Notes under the pieces: model-generated
What the model saw: the letters and a program-made list of their open reading frames with translations, nothing else
Database searches by the model: none
What the model was told of the DNA's origin: nothing
Assembly (NCBI GenBank): GCA_036012755.1
Contig: DASCPX010000016.1
Location: forward strand, 96,001-160,000
Direction of reading: 5' to 3'
DNA length: 64,000 nt
Source of the DNA: Myxococcota bacterium
GTDB lineage: Bacteria; Myxococcota_A; UBA796; CAJQPC01
Made by a program: the position numbers and the translations under genes
Part shown: piece after piece, positions 10,286 through 63,730 of the stretch
How positions within the stretch are numbered: the first letter of the stretch is position 1
How the letters are laid out: each line of letters begins with the position of its first letter

Positions 10286-11218
10286 ATGCGCACGCTCTTC
10301 GTGATGGACCCGCTCGATCGGATCGACATCGCCGGCGACTCGACCTACGTGCTGATGCTCGAGAGCGTCCGTCGCGGCTTTCCGATCGCGATGTGCACGG
10401 TGGACACCCTCAGCGTGCGGGACAACCAGCCGTGGGCGGTGACGACGCCGGTGCACGTCACCGACGCGCCCCCGTACTTCCACCCTGGGGAAGCTCGGGG
10501 GGAGCCGCTGTCGGCCTACGACTGCGTGTGGATGCGCAAGGACCCGCCCTTCGACATGGACTACGTCTTCGCGACCTACCTGCTCGACCTCGCGGACTGC
10601 CTCGTCCTGAACGACCCGCGCACCATCAAGCTCGCCCAGGAGAAGCTCTACGCGCTCCAGTGGCCGGAGCTGTGCCCGCCGACCTTGGTCACCAACCGCC
10701 TGGCGGACGTGAGGGCCTTCGCCGCCGAGCATGACCGGGTCGTGCTGAAGCCCTGGGACGGCAACGGCGGTCGCGGCATCGTGATCACCCAGGAGGGTGA
10801 CCGGAACCTGGGCGCGCTCGTGGAGCTGTTGACGGACGAGGGCGGGAGCTACTGCATCGCCCAGCGCTACCTGCCCGCGATCGAGACAGGGGGGGACAAG
10901 CGCATCTTGCTCGTCGAGGGCGAGCTCCGCGGGTGGTTCGCGCGCATCCCGGGCAAGGACGATCACCGTGGGAACATGCACGTCGGAGCGAGTGTCATCA
11001 GCTACGAGCTGCCAGCACGGGACCGGGAGATCTGCGAGGCGCTGGCGCCCCGCCTGAAGGCCGAGGGCCTCGTCTTCGTAGGGATCGATGTGATCGGCGA
11101 ACACCTGACCGAGATCAACGTGACCAGCCCTACTGGCTTGCGAGAGGTGCAGGCTCTGCAGGGCCGTGATCTCGGAGCCGAGCTCATCGACGCGGCTCTG
11201 TCCCGGAGGTCGACGTGA
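10286..11218 (+). CDS. gshB: Glutathione synthetase
   Basis: FVMDP, MRKDPPFD, GDKRI, RGNMHVG, GIDVIG..LTEINVTSPTG. Confidence 0.95.
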   Translation: MRTLFVMDPLDRIDIAGDSTYVLMLESVRRGFPIAMCTVDTLSVRDNQPWAVTTPVHVTDAPPYFHPGEARGEPLSAYDCVWMRKDPPFDMDYVFATYLLDLADCLVLNDPRTIKLAQEKLYALQWPELCPPTLVTNRLADVRAFAAEHDRVVLKPWDGNGGRGIVITQEGDRNLGALVELLTDEGGSYCIAQRYLPAIETGGDKRILLVEGELRGWFARIPGKDDHRGNMHVGASVISYELPARDREICEALAPRLKAEGLVFVGIDVIGEHLTEINVTSPTGLREVQALQGRDLGAELIDAALSRRST

Positions 11219-12426
11219 TCCTGCTGTTTGCCACCCTGGCCCTCGCCGACGACGAGCCAGCGGTCGAAGCGAGCGAGACGATCACCGGCGACGCCGAGCG
11301 CCCGGAGCTCGGAGAGGTCGAGGAGCGTGCCTCTGAGGTCGACCTGGTGGAGGCCGAGGGCGAGTGGAACGCCCGAGTGGTCTACGGGGCGCGAGCCCTG
11401 TCGCTCGAAGAGGACTTCGTCGGGCAGGTTCAGCGAGGCTGCGAGCTCATCTTCGAGCGGCAGTACGGGACCGCGAAGAAGCACTGGAAGCAGATGGGCA
11501 AGGACTGGCCAGACCGCGGCATCGAGCACGCCGGGCACGTGTTGGTCTACCAGGCGCTGATGATGGAGAACTTCGACTTCGCCTGGGAGAAGTCCTACAA
11601 GAAGTCCAACGACGCAGCCATGGCCGAGCTCGAGCTGGCGATCGACGAGCCGGGCCGTGAAGGCTGGGACCACTTCCTCGCGGCGGCGATGCTGGGGGTG
11701 GAGGCGATCCACCTCATGCGCAAGGAGGACTACCTCCCCGCCATCTGGCGAGGCCTCGAGGCGGTCGAGCACGTCGACGTCGTGCGCCAGGTGGCACCGG
11801 ACTTCAAGGACGTGCTGCTCGGCGATGGCCTCTACAAGTACTGGCGGTCGGTGGTCACCATGTCCTACAAGGCGCTCCCGGACTTCGGCGACGAGCGCGC
11901 CGACGGCATCGCCGACATGGTGCAGGCGGAGAAGGAGGCCGTCTTCCTCGGGCCAGGCGCGACCCTGGCGCTGGCCTTCACCTGGATCGAGGAGCGCAAG
12001 ATGGACAAGGCGCTGTCCTCGACCTTGAAGAACCACCGAGCCTACCCGGACAACGTGGTCAACAACCTCGTGCTGTCCCGGGTCTACCTCTTCCAGAAGC
12101 GGTACAAGGACTCCAAGAAGATCCTCGACGAGGTGGTGGCCGATGCCCCCGAGAACGAGCGGGTCCACTACTACCTGGCGACGGTGAACCAGAAGCTGAA
12201 GGACTACTCGGCGGCCGAGGAGGAGATCGACCTCTACCTCAGCTTCGACTTGCTGCCCTACTACGAGGCCCAGGCCTATCACCGCAAGGGCGAGCTCTAC
12301 TTCCGCCGAAAGGACTACGCGACCGCGGAGGCGTGGTTCAAGAAGGCCGTGAAGACCGACGGCTACAAGCCCGCCAAGAGGCGCCTCGAGAAGCTCAAGA
12401 AGATGAGGAAGGACGGCGAGTACTGA
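11215..12426 (+). CDS. Exported tetratricopeptide-repeat protein
   Basis: Short signal peptide; C-terminal TPR-like helices (AQAYHRKGELYF...AEAWFKKAV). Confidence 0.75.
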   Translation: MILLFATLALADDEPAVEASETITGDAERPELGEVEERASEVDLVEAEGEWNARVVYGARALSLEEDFVGQVQRGCELIFERQYGTAKKHWKQMGKDWPDRGIEHAGHVLVYQALMMENFDFAWEKSYKKSNDAAMAELELAIDEPGREGWDHFLAAAMLGVEAIHLMRKEDYLPAIWRGLEAVEHVDVVRQVAPDFKDVLLGDGLYKYWRSVVTMSYKALPDFGDERADGIADMVQAEKEAVFLGPGATLALAFTWIEERKMDKALSSTLKNHRAYPDNVVNNLVLSRVYLFQKRYKDSKKILDEVVADAPENERVHYYLATVNQKLKDYSAAEEEIDLYLSFDLLPYYEAQAYHRKGELYFRRKDYATAEAWFKKAVKTDGYKPAKRRLEKLKKMRKDGEY

Positions 12427-12443
12427 CGTCGCCCAGAGTATTT

Positions 12444-12477
12444 CGGGGGCCGACTCCCTCTCGAGAGCCGACCCCCG
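12444..12477 (-). terminator. GC-rich hairpin between convergent genes (possible terminator or 3' stabiliser)
   Basis: Minus-strand 15-bp stem with three G-U pairs and a GAGA loop; no U-tract. Confidence 0.45.
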
Positions 12478-12569
12478 GGTGGGGTCTCCGCTGCGGGCCC
12501 AGGCACAGGGACATCGCTGCGGGGAGGGGGGCGGCCGTCACCCCGCGCCTCCAATTCGAAGTGGGAAGA

Positions 12570-15015: not shown

Positions 15016-15028
15016 TACGCTGCCGGGC

Positions 15029-16537
15029 ATGCTCGGACTGCTCCTCTGCCTGATGAACCCGGCGCTCGCGGAAGATCTGCGCGAGCCGACCCGCGTCTTC
15101 GTCTCCGAGTTCCAGGCCTCCAGCAAGGAAGCCGAGAGCCTGGCGGTGCTGCTGTCGGGCTTCCTCTCTTCCCAGCTGGGGGACCACCCGGATCTCGTCA
15201 GCATCCCCGCGAGCGCCGCCCCCGACTTCGGCGAGTACAGCGCCCGGGTCTACCTCCTGTCCTGCCCTCCCGGCGAGTACCTCGGCTGCGCCTTCGTCGT
15301 CGGCGACCGGGTCGAGGCGCGCTACGCCATCGCCGGCACCGTCGCGACCACGACCAGCGGCAGTGTCGTCCACGTCACCATCATCGACGTCTGGAACTCC
15401 CGCGAGGCCCTGGCCTTCGACGCGGAGCTCGGGCTCGGGGACGACCAGGCCTTCGCAGAGGGCGTCGCCCAGATCCTCGTCGCCGTGATCGAAGGGCGCG
15501 AGGGGCGTCACGACGACATTCGTGAGTTCGACGACCCGGAGCTGGAGGCCCAGGCCCGCGCCGACGCCGAGCTGGCCTCTCGCCAGCTGGCTGCCCTCGC
15601 CGCCGAGATCGGCGACGTCACCACGCTGACCTCTCGTGGTGGTGGTGCCATCGATCGCCCCGAGTACACCCTCGGGGACCTCGAGCTGGAAAGTCGCACG
15701 GACGCCCGGCCAGCCTGGGAGATGCTCGGCATGACCCCGGGCGAGTACATCAAGTACAAGAACTCGGGCCTGACCGTGCTCCAGTGGCGGGATCTCGCGG
15801 CGGGCCGCCGGCACCAGGTCGTCGTGCGCATGGGCGGCCTGGTCTCCCTCGGACCGTGGTCGTCGACCTACGAGGGCTGGTACGCCCAGGACAGCACCAC
15901 CGGCGAGGTCATGGAGGCCAAGGCCTGGCAGGCCCGGTCGGCCAGCTCCGGATCCGGCGGTACGGCCTGGGTGGGCTTCGGCGTGCACCCGCTGCTCGAG
16001 GTGGACCTCGGCCTGGGCGCCGTCTCCGGCCGCTACTACATGCACATCCAGCAGGAGATCGTCGGAGATGAGCCCATCGTGCGCGACGGCGTCGACTTCG
16101 GCGCTCCCAACTTCCTCGTCGGCGCTCGGGTGATCGGAGCTCCCCTGCCGACGCACACGCTGCGTCCCCAGCTCGGCATCGGGGCGCTGTACGTCATCGG
16201 CGAGGGCAACGAGAGGAACCAGATTCCGGCTTCTGCCACGACCCTGCCGAGCTTCGCGGGAAACCACCTCCTGCTCATACAGGTGCTCCCCGGGGCCGAG
16301 GTCAGCTTGTCCGACACGCTCGATCTGTACCTGGTCGTGCCGCTGTCGGCTGTCATCGCCGGCCAACCGCAGAGGACCTGGAGCGGCGAAGCGAAGACCC
16401 CGGGCGCCCTCCAGACCTACCAGGACCCCGCGGCCGCTCCGATCTTCAGCGCCGGGGCCGAAGCCGGCTTCGCGGTTCGGCTCGGTGGCGGTCCGAAGCC
16501 TATGCCCAGGTTCGACGACCTGGACGAGCCCGAATGA
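15029..16537 (+). CDS. Exported hypothetical protein, possible C-terminal beta-barrel
   Basis: Signal peptide MLGLLLCLMNPALA; alternating amphipathic strands in the C-terminal half. Confidence 0.65.
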   Translation: MLGLLLCLMNPALAEDLREPTRVFVSEFQASSKEAESLAVLLSGFLSSQLGDHPDLVSIPASAAPDFGEYSARVYLLSCPPGEYLGCAFVVGDRVEARYAIAGTVATTTSGSVVHVTIIDVWNSREALAFDAELGLGDDQAFAEGVAQILVAVIEGREGRHDDIREFDDPELEAQARADAELASRQLAALAAEIGDVTTLTSRGGGAIDRPEYTLGDLELESRTDARPAWEMLGMTPGEYIKYKNSGLTVLQWRDLAAGRRHQVVVRMGGLVSLGPWSSTYEGWYAQDSTTGEVMEAKAWQARSASSGSGGTAWVGFGVHPLLEVDLGLGAVSGRYYMHIQQEIVGDEPIVRDGVDFGAPNFLVGARVIGAPLPTHTLRPQLGIGALYVIGEGNERNQIPASATTLPSFAGNHLLLIQVLPGAEVSLSDTLDLYLVVPLSAVIAGQPQRTWSGEAKTPGALQTYQDPAAAPIFSAGAEAGFAVRLGGGPKPMPRFDDLDEPE

Positions 16538-22589: not shown

Positions 22590-22593
22590 GCAG

Positions 22594-26088: not shown

Positions 26089-27861
26089 GTGAAGCGCATC
26101 CTCCTCGCGACCGCGGCCTTCGTCAGCCTCCTGCCTTGCCTGCAGCCTTCGGTGGCGGTCTACGTCGACAACGCGCCGCATCTCGTCGAGGTCGCGGCGA
26201 TGGCGGACGCCTGGCCGGCTGTGGTGTCGTGGACCGATCGGGCCAACTCGGGCATGGTCGTCGGCCAGCTCAACGCTCCGCTGGCCTGGTGGCCGCTGGC
26301 GGGTGCGGTCCGGGCGGGCCTCCCGCTGGTGCCCCTGTACGTGGCCTGCGTCTTTCTCTCCAACCTGGTCTTCGCCTTCGGGGCCTACAGGTTGGGGAGG
26401 CGCCTCGTCGGCGAGGACGCTGGCTGGCTCGCCGCGGTGCTGCTGACGACCAGCGCCTTCGACCTCTACGGCATCGCAGGGGCCGCCGGGGGCATGTGGC
26501 CTTTCCGCCTGTCATGCGGGCTGTTGATGTACGGCATCGGCGCCCGCTGGCGCTCCGGGCTGTGGCTCGCGGCGGTGATGCTGCTCCACACCTTCACGGC
26601 GGTCGCGGCGGTGCTGGTGACCCTGGTCCTGGCGGCGCGAGAACCCAGGCGCCTGCTGCACCTCGGGCTGGCGCTGCTGCTCTCGGCCCTGTGGTGGGGA
26701 CCGCTGTTGGATCCCTCCCTGCGCGGGTTTTCGGGCTTCTGGGAGATGGGCCCGCTGGACACGCTGTTGGTCATGTTCTTCCCCGCCGAGGTGTTGCCCT
26801 GGCGGCTCCTCGGCGAGGTCTCTCCGGTGGGCGGTGCTCCCGGCCTGGCCTTCCTCGTCGTGGCCGGGCTCGGTGCCGCCATGGCCCTGTTCCGTCGGCG
26901 CCTGGAGGACCGCGTCCTGGCCCTGCAACTCGGGGGGGTCGTCGCGGTGTTCGTGGTCGGTGGGGCCGTGCTCTACCCGCTCTTCGAGTTTTCGCTGTTG
27001 GGCCCGAACCCCTGGCGCCACTACCTCTGGGTGCGCGTGGCCCTGGCGCTGGCGGCGGGGGTGGGGCTCTCGGTCCTTCCCCTGCGGGCTCAGGGTCTGC
27101 TCGTGGTCGGGCTGGCCATCCTCGCGGCCTGGGCTGGGGGCCGCGAGCTCCAGATGAGCCCGGGGCTGCTCGACGACCTGGAGGCGACCTGGGAGCTGGC
27201 GCCAGATGGTCGCGTCTACCACGAAGACAGCCTCTTCAAGCCCGGCGCCCCCACGGACCTGACCCGAGGACACGCCGGGGCCCTGCTCGGCACCACGCGC
27301 GAGGTCCTCGGCAGCTGGTACACCGTGTCTTCGGTCCCGACGGTCGGTCCCAGCGCCAGCGAGGCCGGCGCCATCTTGGGCCAGGTCGCCCAACAGCTCG
27401 ATCTGCAGCAGCTCCACCGCAGCCTGCGCACCTACGGGGCGAGCTCGCTGATCTCTGTCTCGGGGTTGCAGCTCTCTGAAGGCGGCTACTTCGAGGACCT
27501 CGGCGGCCACGGCCCCTTCCGCGCCTGGCGGGTGGTCGGCGAGGACCAGCCGATCCTCGGCAGTCGAGACGGGGAGGTCAGCCTGGTCTCGACCCGGCCC
27601 ACCGAGGTCGTGGCGCGGGTACCGGAGGGTCCCTTCCGCCTGCGCAAGAGCTGGCATCCCTGGTGGAGCGCCACCCTGGACGGGGAGCCCGTCGAGCTGA
27701 AAGCTGGCCTCTCGGGTCTCGTCGAGGCCACCGCGCCGAGGGCCGGACAGCTCGTGATCTCCTGGTCGAACTCGGGCGCTGTCTGGGCCTGGGTGAGCCT
27801 CCTGGGGCTGGTCCTGGCGGGAGCCCTGGAGTGGCCTCGTCGGCGCAGCAGTCCGTCCTGA
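26089..27861 (+). CDS. Polytopic membrane protein, GT-C / YfhO-like
   Basis: Many TM segments, D..PH early loop, C-terminal SWHPWWSATLDG before a final TM. Confidence 0.6.
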   Translation: MKRILLATAAFVSLLPCLQPSVAVYVDNAPHLVEVAAMADAWPAVVSWTDRANSGMVVGQLNAPLAWWPLAGAVRAGLPLVPLYVACVFLSNLVFAFGAYRLGRRLVGEDAGWLAAVLLTTSAFDLYGIAGAAGGMWPFRLSCGLLMYGIGARWRSGLWLAAVMLLHTFTAVAAVLVTLVLAAREPRRLLHLGLALLLSALWWGPLLDPSLRGFSGFWEMGPLDTLLVMFFPAEVLPWRLLGEVSPVGGAPGLAFLVVAGLGAAMALFRRRLEDRVLALQLGGVVAVFVVGGAVLYPLFEFSLLGPNPWRHYLWVRVALALAAGVGLSVLPLRAQGLLVVGLAILAAWAGGRELQMSPGLLDDLEATWELAPDGRVYHEDSLFKPGAPTDLTRGHAGALLGTTREVLGSWYTVSSVPTVGPSASEAGAILGQVAQQLDLQQLHRSLRTYGASSLISVSGLQLSEGGYFEDLGGHGPFRAWRVVGEDQPILGSRDGEVSLVSTRPTEVVARVPEGPFRLRKSWHPWWSATLDGEPVELKAGLSGLVEATAPRAGQLVISWSNSGAVWAWVSLLGLVLAGALEWPRRRSSPS

Positions 27862-30768: not shown

Positions 30769-32127
30769 ATGTTGCTGGTCCTCCTGAGCTGCACCAGAGA
30801 GGCTGGCGAGCTCCAGCGCTGCAGCATCGACGCCCCTGAGTCGACGACGCTGCGGGTGGACGGCACGGAGCTCATCGACGAGCACGACCGGGTCGTCCAG
30901 CTCCGGGGGGTCAACGCCGGTGGACGCAGCAAGTTCGCGCCCTACGCGCCCTTCGAGTTCGAGGACTACGACGAGGAGCTCGGCCCCTACCTCGACCGGG
31001 CCGCCAGCTGGGGTATCGACGTCTTGCGCGTGCCCTTTTCGTGGGAAGCCGTCGAGCCAGCCCAGGGCGTGATCGACGAGGCCTTCCTGTCCCGCTACGA
31101 CGCCCTGCTCGACGGCGCCTGGGACCGCGGAATGTGGACCATCGTCGACTTCCACCAGGACATCTACGCAGAGGTCTTCTGCGGAGACGGCTTCCCCGCG
31201 TGGACCGTGGACACCGATCGGGAGCCCCACCACGACTGCTCGGACTGGGGCTCGAGCTACTTCCTCGACGACGACGTGCAGGCCGCGTTCACCGACTTCT
31301 GGGCCGACGAAAACGGGACCCAGGAGGCCTACGGCGCGATGTGGGAGGCCATGGCCGCCCGACACGCGGATCGTCCCGGGGTGCTCGGCTACGAGCTGAT
31401 CAACGAGCCCCACGAGGGGGAGGCCTCCGACTGGGACACAGAGGTCCTGCCGGCCTTCTACAGCGAACACGCGGCCCGGCTGCAGGCCATCGACGACGAC
31501 GCCATCGTGTTCTTCGACGTCGGCGGCCTCGACGGCATCTCGGTGAGCACCGACCTGGAGCTGCCCGAGGGGGACAACCTCGTCTTCGCCCCCCACTACT
31601 ACAACCCCCAGGTCTACCTGGGCGGCTCGCTGGAGATCGACGTGCCCGCCGAGATCGCTGGCTGGCACGACCAGGGGGTCGACTGGGACGTGCCGGTGCT
31701 GGTCGGCGAGTTCGGCGTGCAGCCCTCTCGCGAGGGCGCCGCGGAGTACGTGGCCCGGCACTTCCAGGCCTTCGACGAGCTCGACCTGCACGGCACGGTC
31801 TGGGAATACAGCACGGCGGAGGAGCTCTGGAACGAAGAGGACTTCTCCCTGGTCGAGGCCGACGGCACCGAGCGTGAGACCGTCGTGAGCGTGATGCGGC
31901 CCTATGCCAAGGCGCTGGCCGGAGAGCTGGTCGAGCAGTCCTGGTCCGGGGGGACGTTCACGCTTCGATACACCGCGGAGCCAGGCGGCATCAGCGAGAT
32001 CGTGGTGCCGAGCCGACTCGCCGAGGACCCCGCGCTCCAAGGCTCCGGCGCCTGCGCCCGGCGCAGCGGTGACGCGCTCTACCTGAAGGCCGAGGCCGGC
32101 GACGTGGAGCTTCGGATCGAGCTCTGA
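30769..32127 (+). CDS. GH5 glycoside hydrolase, endoglycoceramidase-like lipoprotein
   Basis: LRGVN, DFHQD, GDGFPAW, YELINEP, FAPHYY, VGEFG, RPYAKALAG. Confidence 0.88.
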   Translation: MLLVLLSCTREAGELQRCSIDAPESTTLRVDGTELIDEHDRVVQLRGVNAGGRSKFAPYAPFEFEDYDEELGPYLDRAASWGIDVLRVPFSWEAVEPAQGVIDEAFLSRYDALLDGAWDRGMWTIVDFHQDIYAEVFCGDGFPAWTVDTDREPHHDCSDWGSSYFLDDDVQAAFTDFWADENGTQEAYGAMWEAMAARHADRPGVLGYELINEPHEGEASDWDTEVLPAFYSEHAARLQAIDDDAIVFFDVGGLDGISVSTDLELPEGDNLVFAPHYYNPQVYLGGSLEIDVPAEIAGWHDQGVDWDVPVLVGEFGVQPSREGAAEYVARHFQAFDELDLHGTVWEYSTAEELWNEEDFSLVEADGTERETVVSVMRPYAKALAGELVEQSWSGGTFTLRYTAEPGGISEIVVPSRLAEDPALQGSGACARRSGDALYLKAEAGDVELRIEL

Positions 32128-51493: not shown

Positions 51494-52822
51494 GTGAACC
51501 TGTTTCTCGCCCTGTCGTGCACCTACGAGCCTCCTGGCGGTGGGCGCCAGGCCGTGTGCAGTCCCTCGGCCGCGTTCGATGGCGACCTCGGGCGGAGGAT
51601 GGGCCTCAGCAGCCACCTCGAGTGGGGCGAGGCCAGCGAGGCGCGAGACTTCGAGCTGGCCGGGTGGGAGGACCTGGGGGTCGGCGTCGTGCGGCGGGAC
51701 CTGACCTGGTCGGTGCTGGAGCCGGCCCGAGGACAGTGGGACTTCGCCCCCGCCGATCGCGCGGTGGAGGCCATGGAGTCTGCCGGGGTAGAGCCGCTGG
51801 GGCTCCTGGACTACGGCAACAGCTGGGCCAGCGAAGACGGCGAGGGCATGGGGCCTCCCGATGATCTCGCCGACTTCGGCGCCTACGCCACGGCTGTGGC
51901 CCAGCGCTACGAGGGGCGCATCCACAGCTACGAGGTCTGGAACGAGCCCAACGCGGGCCTGGCCTTCTGGAAGCCGGAGGAGGACCCGGCGGCCTACGGG
52001 GCGCTGCTCGTGGTGGCCGCGGACGCCATCCACGCGGTCGACCCAGAGGCCGAGGTCATCTTCGCCGGCGTCTTCCACCCCGACCTGGGACTGAACACGC
52101 CGGGCGAGGAGTTCATCGCTGCGGTGCACGAGGCGGTACCGGACTTCGCCGAGCACATCGACGCCATGGCCTTCCACCCCTACCGCTACCCCTTCACCGC
52201 GCCAGAGGACGACGAGTTCCAGCGCACCCTCGAGCAGGAGCTGTGCGATCTCCGGGACTTGAACGCCGAGGTCGGTGCCGGAGAGATGCCGCTGCACATC
52301 ACCGAGCTCGGCTGGCACACCGCCATCGATGCCCTGACTCGAGGCGCGACCCAAGAGCAACAGGCCAGCTACCTGGTGCGCAGCTCCGTGATCGCCTTCG
52401 CCCACGGCGTCGAGTCATTCCACTGGTACACCTTCCGCGACTCCGGGGACGACGACGCCAACCAGGAGCACGCCTTCGGGCTCTACGGCTGGGACGAGGA
52501 CCCCACCACGGCGCCCGAGCCCGAAGCCAAGGCGGCAGCGGTCGCCTACACGGTGCTCGTGCGGATGCTCGGCGGCCACGACACGGTCGTCGACCTCGCC
52601 GAGCTCCTCGGGACAGAGGCCCACGTCTACGAGCTCTCCGGCGGCGCTGGTCGCACCCTGGTCTTCTGGGACCCCTCCGGCGAGACCGAGGTGCTCGTGC
52701 CGGGGCGAGGCACCGCCTCGCTGATCTCGATGCTCGGCGAGGAGTCCGAGCTCCGCGCTCGAGGCGGCGCCTTCACGGTCCAGGCTGGCAACTCTCCGAG
52801 CTACCTGGAGCTCCCGGAGTAG
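51494..52822 (+). CDS. Clan GH-A glycoside hydrolase lipoprotein (GH5/GH39-like)
   Basis: YEVWNEPN, AFHPY, ITELGW, WYTFRD, FGL. Confidence 0.85.
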   Translation: MNLFLALSCTYEPPGGGRQAVCSPSAAFDGDLGRRMGLSSHLEWGEASEARDFELAGWEDLGVGVVRRDLTWSVLEPARGQWDFAPADRAVEAMESAGVEPLGLLDYGNSWASEDGEGMGPPDDLADFGAYATAVAQRYEGRIHSYEVWNEPNAGLAFWKPEEDPAAYGALLVVAADAIHAVDPEAEVIFAGVFHPDLGLNTPGEEFIAAVHEAVPDFAEHIDAMAFHPYRYPFTAPEDDEFQRTLEQELCDLRDLNAEVGAGEMPLHITELGWHTAIDALTRGATQEQQASYLVRSSVIAFAHGVESFHWYTFRDSGDDDANQEHAFGLYGWDEDPTTAPEPEAKAAAVAYTVLVRMLGGHDTVVDLAELLGTEAHVYELSGGAGRTLVFWDPSGETEVLVPGRGTASLISMLGEESELRARGGAFTVQAGNSPSYLELPE

Positions 52823-53262: not shown

Positions 53263-54451
53263 TCACTGCAGGCGACGCAGGGCCGAGGCCAGCTCGAGTG
53301 CTCGCCCGAGGGCGGCGGCGAGCTCGCCGAGTCCCTCAGCTCTCAGTGTGACGCCTTCGTCGTCCACAGAGGACGCCGGGTGGCGGTGGACGACCTCCAG
53401 CAGCGGGCCGACGAAGTCCTCGTCGTCGAAGAGGGCGACAGCTCCTGGCTCTCCGCCCACCGCGATCAGGCTGTCGAGGACGGGGTTGTGGAGGTCGATC
53501 GGCTCTTGGACGTTGCCCGAGCGGTCCGCGTGGACCACCTGAAGGTCGAAGGGTGGGTCGATGCGGACCTTCACACAGGTCTCCCGGCTGCCGAGGCGAC
53601 TCACCCGGACGGCGAAGCCATCGATCTCACCGGAGAGCTCGTCTTCGTGGACCTCGAGGCCCAGATCCTCGGCCGCGTCGACCCAGATGTGCGGCAGCGG
53701 TCGCTCCTCTCCGCTCTTGCTGCCGCGTATGGCGAGCTCGTCGTCATCGTCGTCGTCATCGGCCAGGTACTTGCCGAGAGCTCGGATGAGGACGAACCCC
53801 AGGGTCAACAGCGCCACTGCGACCGAGCCGATCTTCCACCAGGCGAGGCGCTCGACGGTCGGACCGGGGTCGCCGTGTCGCCAGTCGAAGTCGAGGCGCT
53901 CGGCGAGGTCCTCAGCCGTAATCGCCGTGGTGGGTCCGTCCATGTGGCGGACCCCCCCCCAGTTCGTTCCAGTAGAGCACCGGTTCACCGGGCTCGGTCG
54001 GTGCGGGGAGGTCGGTCACGAGCACCCCAGGCGTGCTCCTGTCGGTGACGCTTCCCTGGACCGGCGCCCCCGAGAGCCGGGGGCTCCAGATCTGTTTTCG
54101 TTCATAGGGCAACGAGTTGCGGATCGGAAAGCAGGTCGGATCCTGCGACGGGTATCGAAGCAGGGCGAGCTCTTCGTCCCTCCGGACCACCTGTGCCTCC
54201 ACCCGGTTGCCGTCGGTGAACCACAGCTCCACGCTGTCGTCGTCGACGAGCAGCTCCGCGGCGGCGAGGGCGAAGCCCGCGGGACTTATGACCAGGGCCT
54301 GACCGCCCCGCTCCAGTCCGGGCATGGCGGCGTGGACGTTGTCGAGCTCGTAGATGCTGGTGTGGATCTCGCCCGTGCAGTGTTGGACCGTGAGCAGGCC
54401 CTCCTCCGGATTCGCACAGGCCAGGGACAACAGCAGCATCGAGCCCGTCAT
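53263..54451 (-). pseudogene. Lipoprotein with degenerate trypsin/HtrA-like domain + TM + NPVxD domain, frameshifted at a G9 tract (53952-53960)
   Basis: ORFs 53912..54451 and 53263..53988 overlap across the tract; removing one G fuses them (...YWNELGGVRHMDGPTTAIT...). Confidence 0.65.
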
Positions 54452-54865: not shown

Positions 54866-56233
54866 ATGCAGAAGCGGAGCGCCTGGATGAGTGTGGTGGT
54901 GGGCTTGCTCGTGTCCACGACGGCATGGGCCCAGCAGCGCCCTGGAAAGATCGTCGTCGACTCCGGCAGCGCCAAGGGCGAGATCGTGCTCGACGGCTTC
55001 CCGACGGGGATCATGGCGCCGACCACCCTGGAGTCCGTGCCCCCCGGCGAGCACGTGATCGAGGTCGAGTACGGCTGCATGTTCGCCACCGGCACCGCGC
55101 AGGTGCGGACGGAGGAGACCGTCACCGCCCACATGACGGTCGAGAACCGCGGCGGCACCGGGACGATCCGCGTCCGGGGCCTCCCGCGTGGCGCCGAGGT
55201 CTACATCGACAACGCCCCCAGCGACGCGCTGGGGCTGGAGGACGGCTCAGAGGTCAAGTGCGGCGCCCGGCGGGTCCGCGTCGAGAGCCCCGGCTTCGAG
55301 GCGTGGGAGGACCTCGTCGTCGTGACAAGCGGGAAGTGGTCCACGGTCGAGCCGGAGCTCGTCCAGGCCGAGATCGTCGAGGAGCCGCGGTACGTCGAGC
55401 GCGAGGTCCCACGCTACGAGGAGCCCGAGTACGACGACCTCTCCGATCTGGACGCCGAGTACGACATGGACGATCCCATCGACGCGGCGCGCCGCGCCGA
55501 GGAGGAGCGTCGCAGGCAGGCCGAAGAAGAAACCCGCCGCGCGCAGGAAGAGGCCCGTCGGCGCGCCGAAGAGGAGCGCATGGCGCGCTTTGGCGACATC
55601 GACAGTCTCGACGAGCCGGTGGTAGAGGAGAGCGGTCGCCGAGGTCGGGATCGCGACGATGAGGACGCCCGTGACGAGCTCGACGAGCTGGACGGGTTCG
55701 GGGACGAAGAGGAATACGAGGACGAGTACGAAGACGAGTACGAAGACGAGTACGACGACGAATACGACGAGGTCGACGACTACGACCGCTACGGCGACCT
55801 CGACGAGGAGCCCAGCGGACGAAGGGGCCGGTCGGAAAAACCCGACGACCGGCTGGATGCCAGCTCTCGGAACAGCAAGCAGAGCGAGGGGAAGCCCTTC
55901 CCCGTCCGCGGGGCTGGTGTGGTCGGAGGCGTCGCCGTCGCCGGCGCGGGGGTCGGGCTCGTCGCCGTGGGCACTTCTCGCCTCAACGCGTACCAGCCGT
56001 CCTACGACGTCCTCGTCGGGAACGACCCCCTCTCGCCGGAGGCCATCAACATCAACAACACCCAGCTCAAGCCAGCGAGGCAGATTCGCGGCCTGGGCTT
56101 CGGTCTAACTGGTGTCGGGGTCGCGGCGGGTGTCGTCAGCTACTTCCTGATCCCGCCCGCGTGGAACACGCAGCTCGTGGTGGCGCCCGAGAAGGATGGC
56201 GGTGGCATCGCGGTCCTGACAGTGGAGTTCTGA
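54866..56233 (+). CDS. PEGA-domain exported protein with acidic low-complexity linker
   Basis: Signal peptide, two PEGA-like repeats, (EDEY)n tract, Gly-rich hydrophobic C-terminus. Confidence 0.82.
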   Translation: MQKRSAWMSVVVGLLVSTTAWAQQRPGKIVVDSGSAKGEIVLDGFPTGIMAPTTLESVPPGEHVIEVEYGCMFATGTAQVRTEETVTAHMTVENRGGTGTIRVRGLPRGAEVYIDNAPSDALGLEDGSEVKCGARRVRVESPGFEAWEDLVVVTSGKWSTVEPELVQAEIVEEPRYVEREVPRYEEPEYDDLSDLDAEYDMDDPIDAARRAEEERRRQAEEETRRAQEEARRRAEEERMARFGDIDSLDEPVVEESGRRGRDRDDEDARDELDELDGFGDEEEYEDEYEDEYEDEYDDEYDEVDDYDRYGDLDEEPSGRRGRSEKPDDRLDASSRNSKQSEGKPFPVRGAGVVGGVAVAGAGVGLVAVGTSRLNAYQPSYDVLVGNDPLSPEAININNTQLKPARQIRGLGFGLTGVGVAAGVVSYFLIPPAWNTQLVVAPEKDGGGIAVLTVEF

Positions 56234-58055: not shown

Positions 58056-60182
58056 ATGCTGATCGCGCTTTGCGCCCTGTTGTCCGACGACGTCCGTGCC
58101 GACGAGGGCATGTGGCTGCCCGAGCAGCTCCCCGACATGGGCGAGGAGCTCGCCGGCATGGGCCTGGAGCTCTCTGCCGAGCAGCTCGCCGACACCAGCC
58201 AGGCGCCGCTGGGGGCCATCGTGAGCTTCGGCGAGTACTGCTCGGCGAGCTTCATCTCTGCCGATGGGCTCATCGGCACCAACCACCACTGCGTCACGGG
58301 GCTGCTCCAGTTCAACTCGGACGCCGAGCACGACTACGGCACCGACGGCTACCTCGCCGAGACCCGCTCGGACGAGCTCTCCGGAGGCCCCACGGCTCGG
58401 GCCTACGTGGTCGACGACATCACGGACGTCACGGAGTCGGTGAAGGCCAAGGTCCGCCGCTGGACCAAGGACAAGAAGCGCTACGAGCTGGTCGAAGAGG
58501 CCAAGAAAACCCTCGTGGCCGAGTGCGAGGAGACCCCGAACCACCGCTGCCTCGTCGCCGAGTACTACGGCGGTCGACAGTACCGGCTCATCTCGCGGCT
58601 GGAGATCAAGGACGTGCGAGTCGTCTACGCTCCGCCCGACTCGGTCGGGAACTACGGGGACGAGATCGACAACTGGATGTGGCCGCGCCACGCGGGCGAC
58701 TTCTCCCTGGTGCGGGCATACGTCGCCCCGGATGGCTCCAGCGCCGAGTACAGCGAGGACAACATCCCCTACTCCCCGCCTCACCACCTCCAGATCGACG
58801 CCACCGGCGGGGCTGACGGGGAGTTCGTGATGGCCGCCGGATACCCCGGCCGCACCTACCGCTACCGGACCGCGCGCTCGATGGCGTTCTCGGCCGAGAC
58901 CGCCTACCCCCACGGTGTCCAGATGGCGGACGACATCCTCGCCATCCTCCACGCCGAGTCCGCCAAGGACCCGGAGGGTGCCGCGCGGCTCAAGGCCCCC
59001 ATCGGCTGGATCTCCAACGGCCGCAAGTACCGCCAGGGCAACCTGGACAACTTCCAGGGCTCCGGCGTCGTCGAGCGCAAGAACAAGCAGTGGGCCGAGC
59101 TCGTCGCGTGGGTCGAGGCGGATCCGGTCGACACGAAGATCTATGGCCCGGTGCTGGGGGAGATGGAGGCCATCCAGATCGAGGACGAGGCGCTCTACGA
59201 GCAGGAGGTCACCCTCGGCTACATGATGTGGCTCGCCAGCCAGCTCGACGCGGCCCACACGGCCTACCGGTGGTCCATCGAGCGGGACAAGTCCGATCTG
59301 GAGCGCGACAGCGGCTACCAGGATCGCGACCGCGAGCAGACGGAGCAGTGGTTCGCAGAGGCGCAGGAGACCACCTGGATCCCGGCGGATCGCGTCCTGC
59401 TCGGCCACTTCCTGGGCCGCATGCAGGCCCTCCCAGAGGACAAGCATCCCGAGGCGCTGGATGCCTGGCTCGAAGAGATGGGTGGCGTCGAGGCGGCCCT
59501 GGAGATCCTCTACGCAGAGGGCAACCTCCTCACCGCAGACCAGATGGCTGCGCGCCTCGATCTCGGCGCCGCCGAGCACCGGGCGGACGAAAACCCGTGG
59601 ATGCAGCTCGCCATCGCGTTGGAAGACGGCTTCCTCGCGCCGAAGCGGGAGCTCGACGAGACGCGCCAGGGTGCCTGGCTTCGCCTCATGCCGCTGTACA
59701 TGGAGGCTCTGCGCCAGAGCCGGGAGCAGGTCTACCCGGACGCCAACAACACCCTGCGCCTGACCGTCGGCCACGTGAAGGGCTACCGGCCGGCCGACGC
59801 GGTGATCTACGAGCCGAACACGACGCTCTCGGGCATGGTCGCCAAGCGTGGTGACTGGCCCTTCGACGCCCCCGAGCGCCTCGTCGAAGCGGCCGCTGAC
59901 GTCGAGGACAGCCGCTGGTACGACGCGGAGCTCGGGGACGTGCCTGTCTGCTTCCTGAGCACCCTGGACTCGACCGGCGGCAACTCGGGCTCGGCCACGC
60001 TCAACGCACAGGGGCAGCTCGTCGGCTTCCTCTTCGACGGCAACTACGAGTCCATGAGCGCCGACTGGCTCTTCGACGACGCCGTGACCCGCTCGATCCA
60101 CGTCGACATCCGCTACGTGCTCTGGATCCTCGAGACCGAAGGCGCCACGCACATCCTCGATGAGCTGGACATCTCCGAGTGA
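58056..60182 (+). CDS. S46 family dipeptidyl peptidase
   Basis: DEGMW, CSASFIS..GL..TNHHC, DNWMWPRHAGDF, YPDANNTLR, TGGNSGS, FDGN. Confidence 0.95.
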   Translation: MLIALCALLSDDVRADEGMWLPEQLPDMGEELAGMGLELSAEQLADTSQAPLGAIVSFGEYCSASFISADGLIGTNHHCVTGLLQFNSDAEHDYGTDGYLAETRSDELSGGPTARAYVVDDITDVTESVKAKVRRWTKDKKRYELVEEAKKTLVAECEETPNHRCLVAEYYGGRQYRLISRLEIKDVRVVYAPPDSVGNYGDEIDNWMWPRHAGDFSLVRAYVAPDGSSAEYSEDNIPYSPPHHLQIDATGGADGEFVMAAGYPGRTYRYRTARSMAFSAETAYPHGVQMADDILAILHAESAKDPEGAARLKAPIGWISNGRKYRQGNLDNFQGSGVVERKNKQWAELVAWVEADPVDTKIYGPVLGEMEAIQIEDEALYEQEVTLGYMMWLASQLDAAHTAYRWSIERDKSDLERDSGYQDRDREQTEQWFAEAQETTWIPADRVLLGHFLGRMQALPEDKHPEALDAWLEEMGGVEAALEILYAEGNLLTADQMAARLDLGAAEHRADENPWMQLAIALEDGFLAPKRELDETRQGAWLRLMPLYMEALRQSREQVYPDANNTLRLTVGHVKGYRPADAVIYEPNTTLSGMVAKRGDWPFDAPERLVEAAADVEDSRWYDAELGDVPVCFLSTLDSTGGNSGSATLNAQGQLVGFLFDGNYESMSADWLFDDAVTRSIHVDIRYVLWILETEGATHILDELDISE

Positions 60183-61078: not shown

Positions 61079-61126
61079 GGGTTCGGGGCGCTGCCCACCA
61101 GCCTCGATGGCTGATACTCGGGGTTC

Positions 61127-61627
61127 ATGCCCCCCAAGAAGAAGAAGCGAAGCCGAGCAGAGGCGCTGGTCGTGCTGTTGTTCTGCGCGCCGATCGCGTT
61201 GTTCGCCGGGCGCGAGACCGCCAGCTACGCCGACGCGCTGTTCTGGCGGGCGGGCATGCTGCCCTCTCACGACATCGTCGAGGCCGAGGTCGTCCACAAG
61301 GAGCGGATCACCCGGCGAGCGAGCCGTCCGGAGCAGCTCCTGCTGACCTGGGCCTGGGTCGATGAGGAGGGCGAGCACCAGGACCTCCAGCCCGTGGCGG
61401 CGAGCACCTATGACCGCACGGACATCGGCGACTCCATCACCGTCCTCGTCGACGAGGGGGGCCAGAGCATCATCTCGGGCTGGAAGGACAACGGCGAGCG
61501 GCTCTTCTACGACGCCGCCATCACCGGGGTGCTCGGGCTGCTCACGCTGGTCTTCGGGCTCGCCGGACTGGGGGGCATCAAGCGGCTCTTCAGCGGTAGA
61601 GCTCCACCCAGTCGCGGAGGTAGCTAG
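61127..61627 (+). CDS. Two-TM membrane protein (DUF3592-like)
   Basis: TM - small beta domain (GDSITVLVD) - TM. Confidence 0.65.
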   Translation: MPPKKKKRSRAEALVVLLFCAPIALFAGRETASYADALFWRAGMLPSHDIVEAEVVHKERITRRASRPEQLLLTWAWVDEEGEHQDLQPVAASTYDRTDIGDSITVLVDEGGQSIISGWKDNGERLFYDAAITGVLGLLTLVFGLAGLGGIKRLFSGRAPPSRGGS

Positions 61628-62813
61628 GCCGCGCCTCGATCCAGTTGCGCATGCACTGGAGCTCGTTTTCGCGCTGGAGCTCGCTGTACCAGCTCCGCGT
61701 GTCCTGGGAGGAGAGCTCGTCGATGAGCACCAGGCGCTCCTCCATCGTGGCGACGAGGTCGGCCTCTTCCATGCGATCGGCGTGGTCCAGCAGGCCATCG
61801 AAGATGAGGTCCCTACACTCGACGTCGCTCCAGCAGCGGCTCGTGAGGTAGCCGTTGGAGTGATCGGCCGGGTTCGTGCCCAGCTCGCCGCAGTGGGGGG
61901 AGGCGGACCAGGGGTACCAGCCGAAGGCCAGGTCGGTGCTCCACGGGGTCCAGTGGAAGCGCCCGGTCGAGGGCACGTGGTGGACCCGGTAGTTGTTGAT
62001 GTTCCAGCCGTAGTTGTCGTAGTGCGCGATGGCCATCTCGGCTGTGATCTGGCGGATGAACTCGTCCCAGTCGACGAGCTCTGCCGTGGCCTCCTTGAAG
62101 TCCGTCGCCGTGGCGGCCTCGCAGAGCTCGAACAGCGCCAGGGTGTCGCCCTCGGTGTCGGTCTCCCAGCAGTCGCAGCCGGCGTCGGCGAGATCGCAGC
62201 CGTAGTTGAAGGAGCCGGCCTCCCAGGTGCCGCCGTCGCCGTCGTCGAACCAGCGGTCGTTGAAGACGCGGTTCTGCTTCTCGAGCAGAAGGTAGATGCC
62301 GTAGTCCTCGCCGTTGATGGAGAGGTGGGCATAGGCCGAGCGCGACGCCGGCACCTGCACCGTGCGGAAGTAGAGGTAGGCGAGGTGCTCGTGCAGGTTG
62401 CTCGGGTCGTAGGTCATGTTGTGGACGTAGACCGACGACAGCCCGTCCCAGTGCTGGGTCTCGACGTAGCGGTTGAAGTCCAGGATCAGCGAGGGCTTGT
62501 CGTCGATCGTGCGGTACTGGGTGTGGCCCTTCAGCCGCGCGCCGATGTCGATCTCCTCTCCGTCGTCCAGGAGCAGCTGCACCTCTGTGTAGGTCGTCGG
62601 GTTGTACTGCAGCGAGGTCCAGGCGTAGTCGCCGATCTCCAGGTGGATCGTGTGCACGTAGCTGTCGTCGAAGGTGACCTCGCCGTCGGTCCCCGGGTCG
62701 ACGCCGCCGACCTCCTCGAGTCCCGTGTCGGGCACGTACTCCTCGCCGGGCACCACGAAGACCCCGGTGGAGCCGAGGGGGACGGAGGCGGTGCAGGCGA
62801 AGAGCAGGAGCAA
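61590..62813 (-). CDS. CotH kinase family lipoprotein
   Basis: GARLKG, KPSL, HDNY-like HYDNY...NNY, PWSTDLAFG. Start TTG 62813 inferred. Confidence 0.88.
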   Translation of the reverse strand: MLLLFACTASVPLGSTGVFVVPGEEYVPDTGLEEVGGVDPGTDGEVTFDDSYVHTIHLEIGDYAWTSLQYNPTTYTEVQLLLDDGEEIDIGARLKGHTQYRTIDDKPSLILDFNRYVETQHWDGLSSVYVHNMTYDPSNLHEHLAYLYFRTVQVPASRSAYAHLSINGEDYGIYLLLEKQNRVFNDRWFDDGDGGTWEAGSFNYGCDLADAGCDCWETDTEGDTLALFELCEAATATDFKEATAELVDWDEFIRQITAEMAIAHYDNYGWNINNYRVHHVPSTGRFHWTPWSTDLAFGWYPWSASPHCGELGTNPADHSNGYLTSRCWSDVECRDLIFDGLLDHADRMEEADLVATMEERLVLIDELSSQDTRSWYSELQRENELQCMRNWIEARPSYLRDWVELYR

Positions 62814-62830
62814 GGACACAGGGTAGCCTC

Positions 62831-63730
62831 TCAGGGGCCGCTGACCGTGCCTTGTCCACCCGCGAAGCCGAACCAGCCCGGGAAGCTGTAGTAGTCGGCG
62901 GTGCCTCCGGGGGTGCCGCCGCTCCCGCCGGCTGCGGCGATGCGCAGGACCACCTCGCCGTCGACGGTCCACGAGGACAGGGTGCCCAGCTGTGTCTCTC
63001 CAGAGCTGATCAGCGAGACGTAGTCGGGGTTCTCGTTGTTCCAGCCCCACAGCGCCGTGGTGCTCGGCGAGCCCGAGGCGTTGTTCAGGCCCCTGATGAA
63101 GGGGATCGCCACCAGGTGGTTGAAGCTGCCGCCGCTGCAGCGGACATCCCAGGCCTCCATCGAGAACTCGCCGCTGGAGTAGGTCGTCTGGTTCCTCAGG
63201 GCGTTGGAGCCCCCGAGGAAGGCCGTGAAGTGCTCCGTGTCCGCCGAGATGGTCATCGCGTCCCGGTCGAAGACGTGGGTGTTCGCCGTGTGGTCGTCGT
63301 CCTCGTCGATGAACTCCACGACGTACCAGGCAGCGTCGGTGGTGTCGTAGTAGCCGAGCAGCACGTCCTCGTCTTCGTCCACGGTCCCGGTGACGGGGAG
63401 CGTGACGGTGACGGGCTCGGAGAAGGTCGTGTCGTCCGGGCCGAAGTCCCAGGCTGCGGTGACGACGTCGTCCGCTGGGAGCTCGACCTCGCCGTCCTCG
63501 AGCTGCCGGATCGTGATCTCGACGTCCGCATCGAGGGCTCCGGCGGGCACGGTCACCGAGGCGCCACCAGGGTGCTCGATGGTGCCGCCGTCAGGCCCGA
63601 TGACCTCTGTGACCTCGCCCTCCGGGTCACTGTCGTCGGTCTGGGAATCGTCGGTCTGGACCTCGGAGTCGTCGGTCGGCGCGACCGGATCGTCCGGATC
63701 CCCGTTGCAGGACAGGAGGAGCAGCAGCAT
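62831..63730 (-). CDS. Lipoprotein with ZU5-like domain
   Basis: MLLLLLSC; IGPDGGTI...VTVPAGAL...FGP...FSEPVTVTLP...HFT. Confidence 0.78.
   Translation of the reverse strand: MLLLLLSCNGDPDDPVAPTDDSEVQTDDSQTDDSDPEGEVTEVIGPDGGTIEHPGGASVTVPAGALDADVEITIRQLEDGEVELPADDVVTAAWDFGPDDTTFSEPVTVTLPVTGTVDEDEDVLLGYYDTTDAAWYVVEFIDEDDDHTANTHVFDRDAMTISADTEHFTAFLGGSNALRNQTTYSSGEFSMEAWDVRCSGGSFNHLVAIPFIRGLNNASGSPSTTALWGWNNENPDYVSLISSGETQLGTLSSWTVDGEVVLRIAAAGGSGGTPGGTADYYSFPGWFGFAGGQGTVSGP

Follow-up and report, generated by a model that had tools for sequence, protein, structure and literature searches.

Very short, uncharged lipoprotein-type and signal peptidase I-type leaders encoded within one order of Myxococcota

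Introduction

Bacterial lipoprotein signals of the Escherichia coli Lpp type, which serve the Sec pathway and signal peptidase II (SPase II), are N-terminal and combine a basic n-region, a hydrophobic core and a lipobox in which a small residue precedes an invariant Cys. Under rules of the PROSITE style this Cys lies between residues 15 and 35. Among substrates of signal peptidase I (SPase I), a useful reference is the S46 peptidase DAP BII, with structures for the full-length (PDB 4y06) and mature (3woj) chains. The positive charge of a leader can be compensated for by its hydrophobic stretch, according to the title of Hikita and Mizushima (J Biol Chem 1992, 267:12375), cited in PMC5427057. 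A literature search for leaders as short and uncharged as those reported here found no published description.

The DNA analysed here, referred to as the window, is a stretch of 64,000 nt from a Myxococcota bacterium (UBA796; CAJQPC01), positions 96,001-160,000 of the forward strand of contig DASCPX010000016.1 (assembly GCA_036012755.1). The host is an uncultured marine myxobacterium whose kin are abundant marine and freshwater bacteria. An initial annotation of the window had proposed that this lineage exports and lipidates proteins through leaders of 6-8 residues, and that this implies unusual recognition by SRP, Sec, Lgt and LspA.

Results

Ten N-termini in the window

The annotation had listed ten N-terminal peptides, and every string is present at the coordinates it was given. 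Five have a lipobox, and none of the five carries Lys or Arg before the Cys. On the reverse strand, a ZU5-domain lipoprotein-type gene (62831-63730) starts at an ATG with an AAGGAG Shine-Dalgarno sequence and encodes the leader MLLLLLS followed by Cys8 (63707..63730). The fourth codon upstream is TAG, as had been claimed, leaving three open codons between, and the exact 299-aa form is found among public gene calls. A CotH-family lipoprotein-type gene on the same strand (61590-62819; CotH match 9e-32) encodes (MS)LLLLFA followed by Cys (62793..62819). Its start at 62813 is TTG, and the alternative GTG two codons upstream (62819) gives MSLLLLFAC, which is still uncharged; in a same-genus orthologue TAA lies three codons upstream of GTG-GTG-ILLIAC, which limits the leader there to eight residues or fewer. 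The third reverse-strand gene, a trypsin-like lipoprotein-type gene identified by family match (53912-54451), encodes (MTGS)MLLLSLA followed by Cys (54416..54451), with an ATG at 54439 and an alternative ATG four codons upstream (MTGSMLLLSLAC) that also leaves the leader uncharged. This gene is split by a frameshift in the assembly, and public calls hold forms of 175, 179 and 395 aa, the last of which joins the next open reading frame.

The two remaining lipobox genes are on the forward strand. A glycoside-hydrolase-like gene with weak GH42/GH10 matches (51494-52822) has the leader MNLFLALS and Cys9 (51494..51520), starting at a GTG with an AAGGA Shine-Dalgarno sequence and nine open codons upstream that include no canonical start. 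The GH5 cellulase-family lipoprotein-type gene (30769-32127; PF00150, 2.7e-29) encodes MLLVLLS followed by Cys8 (30769..30792) from an ATG. An alternative ATG lies 28 codons upstream; we rejected the longer form, against which stop-bounded orthologues argue, and public calls hold only the 452-aa form. The orthologous leaders MLLGFLGC, (V)LFLLLAGC and MIVLLLAC have stops 7, 2 and 14 codons upstream respectively and contain no Lys or Arg.

The other five N-termini have no lipobox, and all are on the forward strand. Peptidase S46 (58056-60182; match 8.7e-202) has a 15-residue SPase I-type leader, MLIALCALLSDDVRA (58056..58100), beginning at an ATG with a GAGGTGA Shine-Dalgarno sequence and a single open codon between it and an upstream TGA. 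A TPR-repeat protein (11215-12426) has the 11-residue leader MILLFATLALA (11215..11247), from a GTG that overlaps the preceding gene's stop codon, with a GGAGG Shine-Dalgarno sequence and 15 open codons upstream that include no canonical start. A 502-aa protein without known family (15029-16537) begins at an ATG with the 14-residue leader MLGLLLCLMNPALA (15029..15070); the sole upstream alternative is a GTG 89 codons away within the preceding gene, and the exact form occurs in public calls on 13 contigs. In the FadL-like outer-membrane protein (33785-34987; Toluene_X, 1.5e-7) the possible 12-residue leader MLCFLLSLPASA (33785..33820) depends on an insecure GTG start with seven canonical starts upstream, one of which gives a classical 44-residue leader, and a search for homologues that might settle the start of this protein found none. 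Finally, a 364-aa protein (34987-36081) begins MLWISTAAA (34987..35013) at an ATG that overlaps an upstream stop, with 39 open codons upstream and no canonical start among them; it matches no family and is only a putative, unproven export substrate.

Classical leaders coexist with the short ones, both in the genome and in the window. A PEGA-domain protein (5.4e-13) has the classical leader MQKRSAWMSVVVGLLVSTTAWA (54866..54931, forward strand), while a protein without family has the classical-type N-terminus MKRILLATAAFVSLLPCLQPSVAV (26089..26160, forward strand) with three open codons upstream.

Scale and composition of the short leaders

The annotation had suggested the genome-wide distribution of the first Cys as a check, and the short position proved to be general. 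Lipobox N-termini total 967, and in 710 of these, out of 5942 gene calls (approximately one gene in eight), the Cys lies at residue 12 or earlier, outside the range of residues 15-35; the most common position is residue 8 (232 genes). The same short pattern follows an internal Met in only 39 of 30893 cases, a 95-fold enrichment at N-termini, and the DNA pattern ATGNNNNNNCTNCTNGCNTGY occurs 42 times vs once for a codon-reversed control. Among forced-start genes, short uncharged lipobox leaders number 204 vs 48 classical ones.

In the 710 short leaders the position before the Cys (-1) is Ala in 488, Gly in 130 and Ser in 92, and position -3 is Leu in 448. Position -2 is Leu in 453, a departure from Ala/Ser in sequences that otherwise agree with the lipobox [LVI][ASTVI][GAS]C and its invariant Cys. 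Leu at -2 was found in 463/752 short leaders vs 53/219 classical leaders of the same genome, an excess which indicates that core and lipobox are fused. Residue 2 is bulky (Leu, Ile, Phe, Val or Trp) in 539/710, and the residues following the Cys are linker-like. Lys or Arg precedes the Cys in only 6/710, a scarcity that is partly forced, as the lipobox filter bars charged residues at 5-7 positions before the Cys and so in part imposes the absence of charge where the Cys lies at residue 8 or earlier. This charge rule does not affect the histogram of Cys positions or the alignments of S46 and GH5. Counts of leaders without a lipobox are upper bounds, since some hydrophobic N-termini are the starts of cytoplasmic domains, such as the FGE-sulfatase at 17529 and Rossmann-type starts.

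Position of the start codons

The short leaders could be an artefact of mis-assigned starts, the true leaders being longer, classical and reached through upstream or non-canonical codons or by read-through of stops. An upstream canonical start is present in 306/708 short-leader genes, the GTG upstream of 33785 would restore a classical leader, and one GH5 orthologue (L051) has a hydrophobic run that reaches upstream of its only canonical start. The other 402/708 genes have no upstream canonical start, and 128/708 have three or fewer open codons upstream. The upstream in-frame stops are TAG (101), TGA (72) and TAA (26), and as all three types occur there and all three terminate genes, the stops are not recoded. 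A longer leader via a canonical start is ruled out for five of the ten window examples, two of which have stops one and three codons upstream, and the starts at 11215, 34987, 51494 and 58056 are indeed the first available in frame when ATG, GTG and TTG are considered. Orthologues are stop-bounded too: in the same genus stops lie one and three codons upstream, and similarity at the nucleotide level breaks off at the starts. Coding potential sets in within six codons of each cited start, and public, independent gene calls contain the same short forms. Shine-Dalgarno matches of at least 4 bases precede 398/710 short-leader genes vs 3010/5942 of all genes, equal to the genome average. The same gene caller finds classical leaders in two control genomes. 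For stop-bounded genes mis-assignment is largely refuted, and as a general explanation we consider it extremely improbable.

Exported families with short leaders

The 58056 gene allows the end of a short leader to be compared with solved structures. Its leader ends where the mature DAP BII chains start, at aligned residue D16; h- and c-regions and a V-R-A site lie before this point, and the n-region is absent. A same-genus orthologue has the 11-residue leader MLILLSSLASA|DEGMW, preceded by the same TGA, and the start region is reproduced without indels in contigs from other studies. Within the order, S46 homologues have uncharged leaders at 25/30 loci, while outside the order Arg is present in 4/4. 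Short leaders are also found on a CXXCH cytochrome-like protein, GH5 and the FadL-like protein, and on a FlgI-like N-terminus assigned by eye.

These families bear on whether the short N-termini are export signals at all, or instead uncleaved membrane stubs or the beginnings of cytoplasmic proteins with an unlipidated Cys. To our knowledge a core of 5-7 residues is shorter than in any leader known to function, and below the lengths that work in model studies; several of the ten window proteins also have no known family. Against this, the recognisable families (S46, whose mature end aligns with that of solved chains, GH5, the FadL-like barrel, CXXCH and FlgI-like proteins) act outside the cytoplasm. 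The three positions before the Cys obey lipobox rules, and in the SPase I-type S46 leaders a small-x-small site abuts the conserved mature sequence at 25/30 loci. We judge this alternative to be very unlikely.

Taken from the sequences, the evidence supports the prediction that the lineage has hundreds of genes for exported-type and lipoprotein-type proteins whose SPase II-type leaders (6-8 residues) or SPase I-type leaders (11-15 residues) lack a basic n-region. The original proposal thus holds as regards the leaders, which are encoded and often stop-bounded; their export and lipidation are predicted, and the example at 33785 is insecure.

Distribution among relatives

The identical pipeline was run on 400 kb each of this genome, a relative from the same order (G147) and a genome from outside the order (G230). 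Lipobox leaders were short in 50 and classical in 10 of 61 cases in this genome, short in 8 and classical in 27 of 43 in G147, and short in 2 and classical in 22 of 25 in G230. The median Cys position falls from approximately 21 outside the order to 15 in the same-order relative and, within the 400 kb taken from this genome, to 9. The trait is confined to part of one Myxococcota order.

Export machinery

The genome encodes one SecY, SRP, three SPase I, two LspA, five Lgt and Lnt (one above cut-off), together with two deformylases. Both LspA contain GNxxDR and FNxAD segments with two Asp, which we take to be the catalytic motifs. Multiple Lgt copies occur throughout the phylum and are not linked to the trait. 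The initial annotation had pointed to secY, ffh, lgt and lspA as places to look for lineage-specific changes; the machinery looks ordinary and is in canonical form, and the one change in the SecY pore ring is order-wide. At this position, I187 in E. coli numbering, SecY has Ala or Ser in 50/50 genomes of the order vs Ile in 6/6 Myxococcota outside it, and E110Q, T168S/A and A79V are also order-specific.

These substitutions, and the closeness of I187 to pore and plug positions that are sites of prlA signal suppressors, thought to ease channel opening in the account drawn on here from PMC2171872, could mean that ordinary machinery is insufficient and that short leaders need a translocon adapted in this lineage, or a further factor. 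However, the I187 substitution marks a single clade and hence one evolutionary event, and that part of PMC2171872 does not list I187 as a prlA position. G147 has Ser at this site with mostly classical leaders, as does genus g4 with Arg-containing S46 leaders, and among unrelated bacteria Thr is found in 17/80 SecY and Ala in one. The single SecY must also handle the classical leaders. Such a requirement is therefore unlikely. As the change is also found in a relative with mostly classical leaders, it can be at most permissive, and I187 to Ala/Ser, E110Q, T168S/A and A79V are candidates for this role. A search for changes in the machinery restricted to genomes in which the trait is strongest found none. 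The unusual recognition by SRP, Sec, Lgt and LspA that had been thought to follow from the short leaders is thus not borne out, given canonical machinery, an order-wide SecY change and coexisting classical leaders.

Discussion

The explanation we favour, and consider probable on the sequence evidence, is that these are genuine, very short Sec-type signals translated from the called starts and processed by ordinary SecYEG, Lgt/LspA/Lnt and LepB. Translation from the called ATG or GTG would give a nascent chain of Met and a Leu-rich core of approximately 5-7 residues. In lipoproteins this core would merge with the lipobox (consensus L-L-A-C, Cys mostly at residue 8), while in SPase I substrates it would be followed by a short c-region ending small-x-small, for a total of 11-15 residues. 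Export would take place through the single, ordinary SecYEG channel, with processing by Lgt, LspA and Lnt for lipoproteins or LepB for the others, the same enzymes that would serve the minority of classical leaders. The sole positive charge may be the alpha-amino group of a retained Met1, as the bulky residue 2 and two deformylases suggest, and the high Leu content could compensate for the absent n-region. A leader shorter than the bilayer might sit in the SecY lateral gate or the periplasmic leaflet, near the active sites of Lgt and LspA.

A more speculative reading, which we find doubtful, is that the signal has been reduced to a stub that cannot span the membrane, in which Met and 5-6 Leu-rich residues run directly into the lipobox, enabled by the order-wide prl-like SecY (I187 to Ala/Ser, E110Q, A79V, T168S/A). 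If so, both a basic n-region and a bilayer-spanning h-region would be dispensable for Sec targeting, Lgt transfer and LspA cleavage.

If the leaders work as read, Sec and lipoprotein signals would have a natural lower limit far below the textbook form (less than half the length, and uncharged), and a positive n-region and membrane-spanning core would be dispensable across a proteome. Most of the envelope proteome would escape annotation rules that demand a basic residue and a Cys no earlier than residue 15; here this concerns approximately 750 of approximately 1060 lipobox-type N-termini. The gradient of Cys position across relatives could be used to test which features the translocon, Lgt and LspA recognise, and the leaders could be used in engineering as minimal secretion and lipid-anchor tags.

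Comparison with known systems

The short lipobox leaders resemble Lpp-type signals in their N-terminal position, hydrophobic core, invariant lipobox Cys and small residue at -1, with Lgt, LspA and Lnt all encoded; they differ in the absent n-region and in a Cys mostly at residue 8. The S46 protein is of the same family as DAP BII and shares its mature N-terminus, xEGMW, preceded by a small-x-small site, but has a leader of 15 residues (11 in the same-genus orthologue) vs 24. Unlike a canonical SPase I leader, its core begins at residue 2 with no preceding Lys or Arg. As in the leaders of Hikita and Mizushima, as far as the title of that work indicates, a basic n-region is not absolutely required given a strong core. 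Those were engineered E. coli leaders in which a longer core compensates, whereas here the leaders are natural and proteome-wide and the core is shorter. The SecY of this order recalls prlA alleles in that a pore-ring residue, the I187 equivalent, is replaced by a small one, near the prlA sites I191, I278 and I408 given in the portion of PMC2171872 used here. In contrast to prlA mutants, the Ala or Ser at I187 is natural and order-wide, and the site is also substituted in a relative that has classical leaders; Thr is found there in unrelated bacteria.

Leaders of the window

The short, uncharged leaders of this genome are probably real Sec-type leaders served by ordinary machinery, judging from the sequence comparisons set out here. 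By short we mean leaders with Cys at residue 12 or earlier (SPase II type) or of 11–15 residues (SPase I type), while classical leaders carry a basic n-region. All ten peptide strings claimed in the initial annotation were found in place when the sequence was read directly: 54439, 62813 and 63730 on the minus strand, the other seven on the plus strand. Together they account for 10 of the 60 gene calls that overlap the window.

Each of the ten reading frames was walked upstream from its start. The S46 peptidase gene at 58056 has one open codon and then TGA, with a Shine-Dalgarno-like GAGGTGA, and the gene at 63730 (minus strand) has three open codons and then TAG, with AAGGAG. Upstream of 51494 (Shine-Dalgarno-like AAGGA), 11215 (GGAGG) and 34987 there are 9, 15 and 39 open codons respectively, none of them ATG, GTG or TTG; the protein at 34987 has no family match and its export is putative. 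The upstream bounds given earlier for these five genes, namely the TAG at 63730 and no earlier ATG, GTG or TTG at the others, are thus correct. Alternative starts exist for the remaining five. For the GH5 gene at 30769 (Shine-Dalgarno-like GAGGAG) the alternative lies 28 codons upstream, and for 15029 it lies 89 codons upstream, within the preceding gene. The alternatives for the minus-strand genes at 54439 (trypsin-like, four codons upstream) and 62813 (CotH, two codons upstream) would give MTGSMLLLSLAC and MSLLLLFAC, which are uncharged too. The FadL-like gene at 33785 has seven upstream starts and is counted as insecure because one of them gives a classical 44-residue leader.

Classical-type N-termini are found among neighbors in the same window, such as MQKRSAWMSVVVGLLVSTTAWA (54866) and MKRILLATAAF... 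(26089), together with a twin-arginine-like MNRRTALKG at 16534. False positives occur among hydrophobic N-termini, as the start at 17529 warns: MVLLIAAGTATLG (17529–18236, plus strand) resembles a short leader, yet it begins an FGE-sulfatase domain (profile positions 6–254, from residue 3).

Other features of the window were noted in passing. At 53263–54451 (minus strand) related public contigs have one continuous ORF of 395 aa (...NELGGVRHMDGPTT...) where the window has two, the trypsin-like gene of 179 aa and the following ORF of 226 aa. The two are separated by a frameshift within a run of G, which is either genuine or an error of the assembly. At 61590–63730 (minus strand) one public contig fuses the genes at 63730 and 62813 into a 712-aa ORF through an Arg-rich out-of-frame stretch; most public calls for these genes are of 299 and 407 or 409 aa, and a frameshift artefact probably accounts for the fusion. 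A dispersed repeat of about 110–130 bases (68–90% identity) lies at 30515–30644, 53365–53491 and 56973–57092, inside three ORFs of no known family, with more copies on other contigs. N-termini in 1–10275 read by eye as gyrB-, recF-, dnaN- and dnaA-like (minus strand), then yidD-, yidC-, jag- and mnmE-like (plus strand), so that the window would lie at the chromosomal origin region if these readings hold.

Gene calls and control genomes

A codon-usage gene caller was written for the whole 6.73 Mb genome (completeness 95.95%, contamination 1.62%), and in its calls coding potential sets in no more than six codons from each of the ten starts. As a control, identical code was run on 400 kb each of this genome, of G147, a single 9.4 Mb contig from another family of the same order, and of G230, from another family outside the order with a GC content of 58%. 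For G230 the GC3 training threshold was set at 0.65, since 0.8 left just four training ORFs and that run was dropped. This genome gave 352 genes with 61 lipobox N-termini, 50 short and uncharged and 10 classical. G147 gave 318 genes with 43 lipobox N-termini; 8 of these were short, 27 were classical leaders containing Lys or Arg, and the median position of Cys was 15. G230 gave 278 genes with 25 lipobox N-termini, of which 2 were short and 22 classical (median about 21). Leader length therefore declines stepwise from G230 through G147 to this genome. As both controls are mostly classical under the same code, gene-caller bias is ruled out as the source of the short leaders, which are not an artefact of the method.

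Public calls from other pipelines hold the exact short-start forms at 15029, 30769, 34987, 54439/54451, 58056 and 63730, and the long alternative form of 30769 is absent from the public gene calls. Some of these records are of the window's own genome, so the agreement is one of gene callers, not of data sets. In another study, a 43.5 kb contig matches 57801–64000 apart from three substitutions, with no indels; the run behind it is flagged as a possible origin of this DNA. The S46 start is also present, with one substitution, in a contig from yet another study.

Leaders across the genome

Lipobox-like N-termini were found in 967 of the 5942 gene calls. The distribution of the first Cys, a check proposed in the initial annotation, peaks at residue 8 (232 genes), with 103 genes at residue 7, 170 at residue 9, 114 at residue 10 and 59 at residue 11; Cys falls at residue 12 or earlier in 710 genes. 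The same lipobox pattern follows only 39 of 30893 internal Met residues, a 95-fold enrichment at N-termini. Away from contig ends there are 708 short-leader genes, of which 128 have no more than 3 open codons upstream and 242 no more than 12; for 402 there is no canonical start upstream. The stops upstream of short starts are TAG (101), TGA (72) and TAA (26); because all three occur there and all terminate genes, stop-codon recoding is ruled out.

We also defined a forced-start set of 1353 genes, in which the start is the first canonical one with at most 10 open codons upstream. Its lipobox leaders comprise 204 that are short and uncharged, 48 classical, 7 short ones that contain Lys or Arg and 9 long ones that lack both. 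The lipobox filter excludes charged residues at the 5–7 positions before Cys, so for the shortest leaders the lack of charge is in part a product of the filter; the Cys-position histogram and the S46 and GH5 alignments do not depend on it. The consensus runs from Met through a bulky second residue (Leu in 294 and Ile in 142 of 710) to L-L-A-C. Leu occupies position −2 in 463 of 752 short leaders versus 53 of this genome's 219 classical ones, so the lipobox is fused with the hydrophobic core. Recent import of the classical-leader genes is ruled out by a median GC3 of 0.908, against 0.913 for the short-leader genes.

Exported-type families

A family search identifies the product of 58056 as an S46 dipeptidyl peptidase of full length (8.7e-202). 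Compared with DAP BII, for which mature chains have been solved, residue 2 onward of those chains aligns with residue 17 onward of the 58056 protein, and the mature point is preceded by 24 residues in the full-length DAP BII chain versus 15 here. In G419, a genome of the same genus, the S46 orthologue reads TGA-CCG-ATG and then MLILLSSLASA|DEGMW, and the orthologue of the CotH gene has TAA three codons ahead of GTG-GTG-ILLIAC. Nucleotide alignments with G419 break off at the gene starts, 58046 and 62812.

Of 30 S46 loci across the order, 25 carry uncharged leaders 11–19 residues long, with the core from residue 2. Arg is found in the leader at the other five (genus g4 and genomes G067 and G112) and at all four loci outside the order (three genomes of the same class). 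Among GH5 homologues of 30769, Cys lies at residue 9 or earlier, uncharged, in 7 of 25 loci (families f1, f3, f5 and f6), while loci of families f4 and f2 have leaders of 14–18 residues with Arg. One GH5 orthologue, L051 (G292:C10:62545–66870), has a sole canonical start giving MLAC, with the hydrophobic run going on upstream (SALFPLLMLAC), which suggests a non-canonical start codon. A CXXCH cytochrome-like protein and a second protein, whose N-terminus reads by eye as FlgI, also carry short leaders elsewhere in this genome. A search of 12 genomes of the family at 1e-15 found no homologues of the FadL-like gene, and synteny with genus g6, sought for joint start comparison, gave the S46 gene as its sole match.

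Distribution in the phylum

A DNA proxy, ATGNNNNNNCTNCTNGCNTGY, was scanned across 401 genomes of the phylum. It is narrow, requiring ATG, CTN codons, LLAC and Cys at residue 7. This genome gave 42 matches versus 0 for the reversed control, and G014 of the same family 30 versus 2. Family f6 gave 9–23 in seven genomes, 3–8 in four and 0 in one, and nearly everywhere else there were 0–6. The proxy under-reports, as G202 has 6 matches yet a short uncharged S46 leader. The extreme form of the short leader is, by these counts, located in part of one order.

Export machinery

Genome searches found one each of SecY, Ffh and SRP RNA, the last two ruling out loss of SRP, together with three SPase I homologues, one Lnt above the cut-off and two deformylases. 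A tandem lspA-lspA-lgt-lgt cluster lies at G000:C59:99967–102645, with three further Lgt homologues elsewhere. Expansion of Lgt paralogues might be read as an adaptation, as 25 of 25 genomes of the order have 3–5 copies, but this is ruled out by the 1–6 copies in five genomes outside the order.

SecY (L003:1288–2634, equivalent to G000:C80:13379–14728) was aligned to E. coli SecY (5abb_A). Its six pore-ring positions, which we take to be I82, I86, I187, I191, I278 and I408 in E. coli, are I, I, A, I, I and I. The I187 equivalent is Ala in 28 and Ser in 22 of all 50 SecY of the order and Ile in all six other Myxococcota in which the motif was found; further order-specific positions are E110 to Gln, T168 to Ser/Ala, A79 to Val and L171 to Val. 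In the sections of PMC2171872 consulted, I187, I191, I278 and I408 are ring members and the prlA suppressor positions, thought to ease channel opening, are G69, I191, I278, S282 and I408; I187 is absent from the prlA positions named in those sections. A pore change as sufficient cause is weakened by G147 and genus g4, which have Ser at this site yet mostly Arg-containing leaders, and by the variability of the site in 80 unrelated SecY loci (Ile 49, Thr 17, Val 3, Leu 1 and real Ala 2, one of these an 87%-identical relative; seven more apparent Ala are wrong-frame fragments). Both observations point to a SecY state in the order that would be at most permissive for short leaders. The short leaders of the initial annotation stand at the sequence level; the unusual SRP, Sec, Lgt and LspA recognition it drew from them finds no support in the machinery, which looks ordinary.

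Proposed mechanism and comparison with known signals

Met1 would be kept, as residue 2 is bulky, and its deformylated amino group would provide the sole positive charge. The Leu-rich core could then be bound by the SecY lateral gate. Probably too short to span the bilayer, the leader may sit in the periplasmic leaflet, where the active sites of Lgt and LspA could reach it.

The canonical lipoprotein signal, as outlined in part of PMC9360617, has a positive n-region, an h-region and a lipobox reading Leu-Ala/Ser-Gly/Ala-Cys. Within the texts covered by a full-text literature search, no description of such short leaders was found. A longer hydrophobic stretch can reportedly compensate for positive charge, to go by the title of Hikita and Mizushima's 1992 paper. 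The surprising part is that, while a longer stretch compensates there, the hydrophobic stretch here is shorter.
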